A DNA stretch of 64,000 nt. It comes from Escherichia coli. GTDB lineage: Bacteria; Pseudomonadota; Gammaproteobacteria; Enterobacterales; Enterobacteriaceae. Shown here piece by piece: positions 31,376-33,775 of this stretch. The number at the start of each line of letters is the position of its first letter. Positions within the stretch are counted from its first letter, which is position 1. The notes under the pieces are model-generated. The model had not been told where the DNA came from, made no database searches, and saw only the letters and a program-made list of their open reading frames with translations. The stretch is taken from the NCBI RefSeq assembly GCF_024502345.1, contig NZ_JALDNN010000001.1, one strand, 5' to 3'. The position numbers and the translations under genes were made by a program.

Positions 31376-32161
31376 TTTGCCAATTAGATGTCCAATCATT
31401 TCGTTACATCAAAGTTGTGCTTAATTTTTATTTTATAAGGATAATATGGATATTTTTTCTGGAGAATCAATTCTTTCCCAAGTCCCTGATGTCAATCATT
31501 GGTTAGCTTCTTACGGCTTGAATTCAACTACATCAAGATATAGCAGATATATCTCTTATATTGATGCTTTTTTTGAGTCGAAAGATCCCACCTCATCTGA
31601 TGGAAGAGACAAATTTGATTTATTAACCAAGTCGTATGCAGAAATTATAGAAATAGTCAGCGTTAAAAAAGCGTTTGAACATGAAAGAAGCCCCGGATTT
31701 ATTGAGCGTTTAAGTAAGGTTGTTTCTGGAGTTGATCATGTTGGTATTAAAGAACCCAGTGAGCCAAGGAATTTTCTCTACGAATTACTTATGGCTGCCC
31801 GGCTAAAAAATGCTGGCTTTATTATTGATTTTGACCAAGGAACTGATGTTGTCGCATATGGATTTGGTCGTGCTATTTTCGTTGAATGTAAACGCACAAC
31901 ATCAATAAGAGGGTTCGAATCTAATTTCATTAAAGGTGGAAAGCAATTAGAGAGAAAGTTTAAGAGTACGAAACTTCCCCATTTTATGATTCGGGGATTT
32001 ATTGCTATCGATGTTTTACCATATGTATTGAACGATATTCCTAAATTTGAAATAGATAATGAAATGGAAGCTCGCATTTGTGCCAGGATAGTGATGGAAC
32101 GTTTTAAGCAAGATGCAAGTAGGCATATTAATAAGTATATATCACGTTATGAAAATGTTAG

Positions 32162-33356
32162 GGAAGGTGCGAACAAGTCCCTGATATGAGATCATGTTTG
32201 TCATCTGGAGCCATGGAACAGGGTTCATCATGAGTCATCAACTTACCTTCGCCGACAGTGAATTCAGCAGTAAGCGCCGTCAGACCAGAAAAGAGATTTT
32301 CCTCTCCCGCATGGAGCAGATTCTGCCATGGCAAAACATGGTGGAAGTCATCGAGCCGTTTTACCCCAAGGCTGGTAATGGCCGGCGACCTTATCCGCTG
32401 GAAACCATGCTACGCATTCACTGCATGCAGCATTGGTACAACCTGAGCGATGGCGCGATGGAAGATGCTCTGTACGAAATCGCCTCCATGCGTCTGTTTG
32501 CCCGGTTATCCCTGGATAGCGCCTTGCCGGACCGCACCACCATCATGAATTTCCGCCACCTGCTGGAGCAGCATCAACTGGCCCGCCAATTGTTCAAGAC
32601 CATCAATCGCTGGCTGGCCGAAGCAGGCGTCATGATGACTCAAGGCACCTTGGTCGATGCCACCATCATTGAGGCACCCAGCTCGACCAAGAACAAAGAG
32701 CAGCAACGCGATCCGGAGATGCATCAGACCAAGAAAGGCAATCAGTGGCACTTTGGCATGAAGGCCCACATTGGTGTCGATGCCAAGAGTGGCCTGACCC
32801 ACAGCCTGGTCACCACCGCGGCCAACGAGCATGACCTCAATCAGCTGGGTAATCTGCTGCATGGAGAGGAGCAATTTGTCTCAGCCGATGCCGGCTACCA
32901 AGGGGCGCCACAGCGCGAGGAGCTGGCCAAGGTGGATGTGGACTGGCTGATCGCCGAGCGCCCCGGCAAGGTAAGAACCTTGAAACAGCATCCACGCAAG
33001 AACAAAACGGCCATCAACATCGAATACATGAAAGCCAGCATCCGTGCCAGGGTGGAGCACCCATTTCGCATCATCAAGCGACAGTTCGGCTTCGTGAAAG
33101 CCAGATACAAGGGGTTGCTGAAAAACGATAACCAACTGGCGATGTTATTCACGCTGGCCAACCTGTTTCGGGCGGACCAAATGATACGTCAGTGGGAGAG
33201 ATCTCACTAAAAACTGGGGATAACGCCTTAAATGGCGAAGAAACGGTCTAAATAGGCTGATTCAAGGCATTTACGGGAGAAAAAATCGGCTCAAACATGA
33301 AGAAATGAAATGACTGAGTCAGCCGAGAAGAATTTCCCCGCTTATTCGCACCTTCC
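32162..33356 (+). mobile_element. IS5 insertion sequence, complete 1195 bp, flanked by 4-bp target duplication TTAG
   Basis: terminal inverted repeats ggaaggtgcgaacaag (32162-32177) and cttattcgcaccttcc (33341-33356); TTAG at 32158-32161 and 33357-33360; encodes InsH. Confidence 0.95.
32230..33210 (+). CDS. insH: IS5 transposase InsH
   Basis: 326-aa [39 protein letters not shown]... matching the IS5 transposase as I recall it. Confidence 0.95.
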
Positions 33357-33775
33357 TTAGTGCAGGGGTGGTGATAATGGCGATGATACCTGTTTGGTTG
33401 CGTGATGTTATATTACTTCATGTTAATGAAATAGCTCATGTAATTCCTCCATCAACTAACACAGAAGATGTAGGTGAAGTCATATTTTTAGCCGAGAAGT
33501 TAAGCTATCCGCTACTTCCTGATTTTTAGTGTGAGTTAAAAGTTGATAGATCAAAAGTGTGTTTTTTTAGATTATATACTTGGATCCAAGCAGTGCTAAG
33601 GTTATTTCCTTAGCTCACTCATAACTAAATAGATATTTAGCTAGGGGGGACGATCAAACGTTAGCTCCTAGCTCATAACGGACGAACTGAGATATTTGTG
33701 CCCTGTAGAAGAGCACATCGACAGATAAAATTTCGACTGATACGGGGTTCGCTAACTGATGCCAGACAGGGCCAC

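Follow-up and report, generated by a model that had tools for sequence, protein, structure and literature searches.

An island gene interrupted by IS5 next to mutS in Escherichia coli encodes a probable single-gene PD-(D/E)xK nuclease

In a 64,000-nucleotide stretch of Escherichia coli DNA (assembly GCF_024502345.1, contig NZ_JALDNN010000001.1), hereafter the window, a composite island lies between mutS and ygbA/fhlA. Its first cargo gene, acquired horizontally and placed after a tyrosine integrase on the mutS side, is split by a complete copy of the insertion sequence (IS) IS5. We found that the repaired gene encodes a 294-amino-acid protein that, judged from its conserved residues and its predicted fold, is very probably a PD-(D/E)xK nuclease. 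It belongs to an unnamed family, new within a well-known superfamily and a familiar genomic setting. The family, which travels as single-gene cargo of islands, integrative and conjugative elements (ICEs) and plasmids, probably consists of stand-alone, metal-dependent DNA endonucleases of about 300 amino acids. The features of the interrupted locus are the following (ORF, open reading frame).

30095–31375, + strand: tyrosine integrase of 426 amino acids, an ORF at the mutS-proximal end of the island
31446–32161, + strand: 5′ part of the predicted nuclease gene, codons 1–238 plus 2 nt, encoding the N-terminal helical domain and all of the catalytic core
31782–31784 and 31944–31946, + strand: codons of E113 and Q167, the conserved acidic and glutamine residues of the predicted nuclease
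31845–31892, + strand: codons of the D134-x12-E147-C148-K149 motif, on strands β2 and β3
31446–32189, + strand: the present, disrupted ORF of 247 amino acids, whose final 9 residues (REGANKSLI) come from the left end of IS5
32158–32161, no strand: left-hand TTAG of the target-site duplication, visible in the letters of the window
32162–33356, + strand: complete IS5 (1195 bp, 16-bp terminal inverted repeats), oriented like the interrupted gene
32230–33210, + strand: intact IS5 transposase of 326 amino acids, matching NCBIfam NF033581
33357–33360, no strand: right-hand TTAG of the target-site duplication, likewise visible in the letters
33361–33529, + strand: 3′ part of the predicted nuclease gene, from the last base of codon 239 to the stop, encoding two long β-strands and the C-terminal helix

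The element has the length, the ends and the transposase of a complete IS5, as the original prediction, made from the letters of the window, had claimed. Its left end reads GGAAGGTGCGAACAAG and its right end is the reverse complement of GGAAGGTGCGAATAAG, inverted repeats that match at only two places in the window, with 0 matches expected by chance, and its transposase scored 365.9 bits against the IS5 family transposase model NF033581 (cut-off 140). It is, in short, an element of ~1.2 kb with inverted repeats and an IS5-type DDE transposase, and the perfect 4-bp duplication announced in the same prediction was found as TTAG on either side. YTAR is the target preference of IS5, and TTAG is such a site. 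The break had been placed after codon 238; strictly, the insertion falls within codon 239, after 238 codons and 2 nt (nt 716). From there the disrupted ORF continues 9 codons into IS5 and ends at 32189 as a product of 247 residues.

Removal of IS5 and one TTAG, which joins 31446–32161 to 33361–33529, gave an 885-nt ORF of 294 codons ending at 33529, with a GC content of 35.8% against 51.4% for the whole window. This restorable ORF had also been foreseen, and we found it as a real gene: 4 of 5,426 complete E. coli genomes (ET490, KMi029, MSB1_9D and ES10) have an annotated gene that the rebuilt sequence matches from end to end, unbroken and at 100% identity, and whose product is called ‘hypothetical protein’ (WP_058690197.1). 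In these four genomes 31446–32161 corresponds to nt 1–716 of the intact gene with 100% identity, and the gene order is always mutS, integrase, nuclease gene. Because identical genes are annotated at the same site elsewhere, the in-silico excision reproduces a real allele. Among public contigs the exact 294-residue protein occurs on 590, from E. coli, Enterobacter, Citrobacter and Salmonella, whereas the exact 247-residue product occurs on one E. coli contig only (WP_256632726.1); the insertion is therefore recent and strain-specific. It is real, and as an event it is routine and canonical.

Next, we predicted the structure of the repaired protein with AlphaFold2 from a 139-sequence alignment (mean column identity 20%), from which conservation was also read. 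The model is of high confidence, with a predicted local distance difference test score (pLDDT) of 94.8 and a predicted template-modelling score (pTM) of 0.93. In it, residues 1–100 form an all-helical domain with conserved residues of its own (W19, R31, Y35 and E66), and residues 105–190 form an α-β-β-β-α-β catalytic core that presents E113, D134, E147-x-K149 and Q167. The core is built from a helix at 106–122 that carries E113, strands at 126–128, 135–139 and 142–150, a helix at 154–174 that carries Q167, and a strand at 182–189; D134 stands at the start of strand 135–139, while E147 and K149 lie in strand 142–150. Residues 190–294 comprise helices 191–197 and 206–234, a β-hairpin at 241–266 that begins at the conserved G241 and is made of strands 241–252 and 257–266, and a terminal helix at 273–285. 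The hairpin may extend the core sheet.

Conservation in the 139 homologues falls on the same positions. R108, D134 and K149 are invariant, and W19, R31, Y35, E66, G95, E113, L114, E147, C148, R150 and Q167 are conserved in at least 90%. The α-β-β-β-α-β order of the model, and an aspartate at the start of β2, a (D/E)-x-K on β3 and an acidic residue on α1 in the alignment and the predicted secondary structure, are those of a PD-(D/E)xK enzyme. The original prediction had guessed at this superfamily from a D-x13-E-C-K motif and had proposed structure prediction as a check. The guess was borne out by a nuclease-like fold with the canonical core and by D...ExK residues that are invariant or nearly so; the spacing was misread, since the motif is D-x12-E-x-K (D134, E147 and K149). 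Foldseek searches of AFDB50 returned many full-length relatives with template-modelling (TM) scores of 0.75–0.9, among them an identical Enterobacter cloacae entry (A0AB37VE00), under names such as ‘Restriction endonuclease’, ‘Mrr domain’, ‘HamA C-terminal domain’ and ‘DUF1837’.

The family itself escapes current models. As had been noted at the outset, no recognised family claims the repaired protein, which has no match in Pfam, NCBIfam or PADLOC v2; nothing significant was found among PDB sequences either, by phmmer or by the family profile. A word-indexed search found 22 relatives, including ones from Vibrio cholerae (53% identity) and Clostridioides difficile (37%), and when 1.84 billion cluster representatives were scanned exhaustively with phmmer, 558 passed E≤1e-3, almost all of them 270–330 amino acids long. 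Sub-threshold Pfam matches in family members all fall in one PD-(D/E)xK clan (Mrr_cat in 9, PDDEXK_9 in 5, HSDR_N in 4 and Hjc in 2), and one member is called ‘PDDEXK family nuclease’ by NCBI. Profile matches in a set of 5.8 billion proteins carry no precomputed Pfam domains save two stray ones, and a Pfam scan of six longer members (397–562 amino acids) revealed no fused domain.

A separate observation concerns the AFDB entry G8QIH1 (Azospira oryzae, 584 amino acids), which contains the full-length nuclease fold (TM 0.91, 39% identity). Its AFDB description, from which the putative fusion is read, is ‘Peptidase U49’. Peptidase U49 is the Lit-type abortive-infection protease family, and the label, if right, could tie the nuclease family to defence.

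What remains of the gene in this strain is very probably a knock-out. A recent transposition of IS5 into the TTAG inside codon 239 removed the C-terminal 56 residues, and the loss of the hairpin 241–266 and of the terminal helix most likely abolished folding and activity, despite the retained catalytic core.

To understand what the intact nuclease might do, we examined 22 distinct neighbourhoods of homologues, counting as a defence hit any recognisable defence gene within about two genes. The homologue of V. cholerae adjoins a GmrSD_N/NsnA-like gene, that of a Lachnospiraceae bacterium RmrA/RmrT, that of Eubacterium PDC-S31 and that of Aliivibrio PDC-S15. In Marinobacter a type IIG restriction–modification (R-M) system lies 2 kb away, and near the Oxalobacteraceae homologue there is a weak DUF4238 match. 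One homologue on an integrative element sits between ArdC/GmrSD_N and a type I R-M system, and another stands beside a pair made up of a reverse transcriptase and SLATT. The composite island of the window itself carries Septu PtuAB and type I modification (M) and specificity (S) genes. Three homologues are on mobile elements but have no defence hit adjacent: the Pectobacterium homologue is on an ICE that also has UvrD and AAA_15 genes close by, its neighbours being a TraI relaxase and an integrase; that of C. difficile is on a Tn916-like ICE beside ArdA; and that of an Alteromonas megaplasmid lies 0.7 kb from an integrase. Nothing recognisable was found at the other loci. Homologues thus do lie in defence and mobile-element contexts, and not only in the non-defence surroundings that the original prediction had named as telling against it. 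This guilt by association is suggestive rather than statistical, being a plain tally of the 22 loci.

On Firmicutes metagenome contigs a 37%-identical homologue was found in another kind of company, directly upstream of a VanR/VanS-like two-component pair, an alanine racemase fusion and a gene of the D-Ala-D-Ala ligase family. The locus looks like a van-type resistance cluster, and the nuclease there appears to travel with the resistance element.

From these neighbourhoods we consider it moderately likely that the nuclease serves in defence against phages or competing elements. It would cut invading DNA without a cognate methylase or a helicase partner, either as a type IV-like restriction enzyme that depends on modification or structure, or as an effector triggered by infection. 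No neighbour recurs across the ~22 homologue loci, neither a methylase nor a HamB helicase. The absence of an accompanying methylase, together with the widespread intact gene, argues that this is not an ordinary sequence-specific type II enzyme; and with no methylase or partner, discrimination must be built in, for which the conserved N-terminal helical domain is the obvious candidate. This domain may supply target discrimination or autoinhibition: it could read modified or abnormal DNA or, alternatively, act as an autoinhibitory sensor that is released on infection.

Several points weigh against this reading. About half of the 22 neighbourhoods have no recognisable defence gene adjacent. With tblastn we found no homologue in phage records and only two in plasmid records, both on Alteromonas megaplasmids. 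The repaired protein and 10 diverse relatives matched 0 families of PADLOC v2, which includes Hachiman, at E≤1. Foldseek returned no solved structure from the PDB at E≤1e-3, so that only the core of ~105–130 residues is anchored to known enzymes. Our search of the literature for solo HamA-like nucleases or for the family's accessions found no mention or experiment. Finally, a solo nuclease without an immunity partner needs some means of telling self from non-self, and the analysis revealed none.

A more specific version of the defensive role is that of a single-gene immune nuclease, a ‘HamA without HamB’, whose N-terminal domain would sense DNA damage, modified DNA or a phage protein, and whose autoimmune cost would drive repeated knock-out. 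A high cost of this kind would account for the IS5, the two insertions of the IS3 family and the two frameshift alleles described below. We regard this version as unlikely. On the side of Hachiman itself, membership as HamA is unsupported, by profile match and by an adjacent HamB alike: no gene for HamB, a Ski2-like helicase, was found beside the nuclease gene in the window or in ET490, nor among the large neighbours of the homologues.

It is less likely still that the nuclease serves the mobile element, as an accessory of excision or recombination of the XisH-like or Hjc-like kind or as a toxin of addiction or exclusion. The gene does stand directly beside the integrase here and 0.7 kb from one in Alteromonas, and the family is found on ICEs, but most homologues are not next to an integrase, and no antitoxin-sized partner ORF is conserved beside the nuclease. 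Moreover, the nuclease gene is missing from the sister islands of ET665 and PEC122, which retain every other island gene and an integrase related to this one (88% nucleotide identity). Very improbable, lastly, is an orphan type II restriction endonuclease with its methyltransferase lost or encoded elsewhere: AFDB relatives do bear the name ‘Restriction endonuclease’ and one member has a precomputed RE_XamI Pfam match, but no cognate methyltransferase is conserved alongside at the ~22 loci, the R-M systems nearby are complete by themselves, and the wide spread of the intact gene is at odds with the lethality expected of an unprotected sequence-specific enzyme.

The original prediction also proposed that the insertion may reflect selection against a costly defence or toxin gene. 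We found five independent lesions in essentially one allele (97–100% identical). Besides the IS5 of the window, they are an IS3-family element of ~1220 bp with a 5-bp duplication at nt 685–689, in the Enterobacter cloacae complex (positions 6690–7909 of the locus examined from CP056168.1), only ~30 bp from the IS5 site and, in one metagenome, itself interrupted by a nested second IS; an IS3-family end at ~nt 148; a 1-bp frameshift in E. sichuanensis, whose integrase is split as well; and a frameshift near codon 48 in S. enterica arizonae, read from the protein alignment. Neutral decay, in which the gene would simply be a good IS5 target in a degenerating island and the insertion would have no adaptive meaning, is quite plausible, if somewhat short of an even chance. 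The gene holds 21.5 YTAR sites per kb, compared with 7.8 in the window (a 2.7-fold excess) and 3.1 in mutS. The island is decaying, with a CbtA pseudogene, the split integrase of E. sichuanensis and a RadC truncated on dozens of contigs, and the IS5 allele occurs in one genome only. What decay explains less well is that a near-identical allele suffered no fewer than four further independent lesions (two IS3-family insertions and two frameshifts), while the longer integrase and the 172- and 175-amino-acid genes are almost all full length among the members listed, a rough and non-random sample.

Selected loss, in which the nuclease would be costly through autoimmunity or as a barrier to useful plasmids or prophages and its knock-outs would be favoured, is the less probable account, and we hold it doubtful. 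Speaking for it are the disruptions of one allele, at least five of them independent; the inactivation of cas nuclease genes by IS transposition under self-targeting stress, as reported in PMC10359306; and the mild toxicity, when expressed, of a related nuclease system, Hachiman (PMC12278908). Against it, the intact exact sequence is on 590 contigs and disrupted alleles on a few dozen; a gene this AT-rich, with its homopolymer runs and numerous YTAR sites, is prone to mutation in any case; and the gene sits in the decaying island. For this single insertion, and on sequence comparisons, we lean slightly towards neutral decay.

The region between fhlA and mutS is a hotspot of island gain and loss, with islands that carry integrases, toxin–antitoxin and restriction genes, and it is the SPI-1 site in Salmonella; this island and its nuclease cargo are absent from the published description (PMC7232297). 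The integrase next to the nuclease gene gave NCBIfam matches of the integrase/Xer type, all below the curated cut-offs, and is annotated as ‘site-specific integrase’ in ET490. At the same position Enterobacter CP056168.1 and another relative have an integrase of 426 amino acids with Pfam Arm-DNA-bind_3 and Phage_integrase domains, and one member of the integrase's 90% cluster is called ‘DUF4102 domain-containing’. The claim that the neighbour is a P4-type integrase, with Arm-DNA-bind_3 (DUF4102) at the N terminus and the Phage_integrase catalytic domain at the C terminus, therefore holds through the annotation of these relatives.

Onward from the nuclease gene the island has three small minus-strand genes, an SfsB-like regulator, RadC, DUF2787, a CbtA/DUF905 remnant and a second integrase, and its distal part has type I hsdM and hsdS followed by the Septu system. 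The remnant, in the 37865–39524 region of the window, is a 205-amino-acid ORF that fuses CbtA-toxin and DUF905, annotated in relatives as a truncated CbtA pseudogene plus DUF905; it is followed by the second tyrosine integrase (38577–39524). This order indicates that the island consists of two tandem elements, the first a CP4-like remnant (RadC, DUF2787 and CbtA). Further on lie hsdM (43923–45458), hsdS (45458–47143), PtuA (47153–48757, 714.6 bits) and PtuB (48751–49599, 331.5 bits), and no hsdR was found in the window between the Septu genes and the Fic gene/ygbA. A sister island in PEC122 has the order M-S-DUF5655-R (R, restriction subunit) where the window has Septu; in the window, Septu appears to replace the restriction subunit.

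From 33775 on, everything is also present in the sister islands of ET665, PEC122, KL53 and others, where a 1.26-kb stretch without ORFs replaces the nuclease gene. The element can thus do without the gene, and the position next to the integrase takes variable cargo. The three minus-strand genes downstream were rejected as partners of the nuclease, as they persist in the sister islands that lack it. In ET665 the slot is filled by 1263 bp (positions 5739–7001 of the locus examined) with no ORF above 85 amino acids and no annotation. Its core of ~1000 bp, also present in P393-F10 (positions 5001–6000 of that locus), recurs at 98–99.5% identity elsewhere in the 52 E. coli genomes with a match to the stretch, one instance lying between the DUF977 gene and hokD of a lambdoid prophage. 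It is bounded by a perfect 10-bp inverted repeat (GTCCGCTTTG...CAAAGCGGAC), has no Rfam match, and gives folding z-scores that reach only −3.3 and −2.3. It has the look of a non-autonomous transposable element or of a non-coding element of unknown type.

A search for att-like direct repeats between the mutS–integrase spacer and the rest of the island gave no shared word of 12 bp or more that could define the ends of the island. Around the nuclease gene a promoter and terminator scan gave nothing above chance on the + strand, and Rfam gave no match in the region. Far upstream, at 3388–3544, the window has a hok/sok-type locus, with a sok antitoxin RNA (RF01794) at 106.7 bits against a gathering score of 59.

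The insertion matters mainly as a warning that the copy of this strain is probably non-functional. The nuclease is a reasonable candidate for single-gene defence, though one that would not surprise a specialist. Were the repaired gene to block phages or plasmids, a compact system of a single gene and 294 amino acids would be added to the defence catalogue, and the natural comparison would be with Hachiman, namely how a HamA-like nuclease is kept in check when no helicase accompanies it. Current Pfam, NCBIfam and PADLOC v2 models miss the family, whose diverged members number in the hundreds across Proteobacteria, Firmicutes and spirochaetes, and its naturally broken alleles offer a ready handle on the cost of carrying such a nuclease.

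Among known systems, the insertion resembles other IS knock-outs of nuclease-based immunity in being a canonical 1195-bp IS5 with a 4-bp duplication, a YTAR site and an intact transposase. It differs from the knock-outs of cas nuclease genes (PMC10359306) in that the target here is an uncharacterised gene without a known selective trigger. END nucleases, in which a type IIS-like nuclease is joined to an EndoIII domain that is inactive, have a different architecture, and identity with them was rejected (PMC12191111). The archaeal AF1548 (PDB 1y88), a restriction-endonuclease-like protein of unknown function, was the best nuclease match of the family profile against PDB sequences, a non-significant one (E 0.46) on the ExK strand; only the core aligns, however, for AF1548 has 184–199 amino acids and lacks the N-terminal helical domain and the C-terminal extension.

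HamA of Hachiman (DUF1837, PF08878), a D...ExK nuclease that resembles PaqCI and works with the HamB helicase (PMC12278908), is similar in its 250–300 amino acids, its helical N-terminal part and its C-terminal PD-(D/E)xK nuclease with D...ExK. UniRef and AFDB name the identical protein ‘DUF1837 domain-containing’, a label that comes from naming alone. Unlike HamA, neither the protein nor its relatives match the PADLOC or Pfam HamA models, no HamB helicase or other conserved partner is near the gene, and in structure the protein may be nearer to AF1548, NucS and XisH. Mrr-type and other type IV enzymes (Mrr_cat, PF04471) are likewise solo PD-(D/E)xK nucleases without a cognate methylase; sub-threshold Mrr_cat matches occur in 9 of the 139 members, and the name ‘Restriction endonuclease type IV Mrr domain’ is given to AFDB relatives. 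Yet 0 of the 139 members match the Mrr_cat profile at E≤0.001 (the 9 do so at E≤0.1), which does not support membership, and no known modification-reading domain matches the N-terminal domain, which consists of helices only. The protein would work like a nuclease of the HamA or Mrr type, without demonstrable membership of either group.

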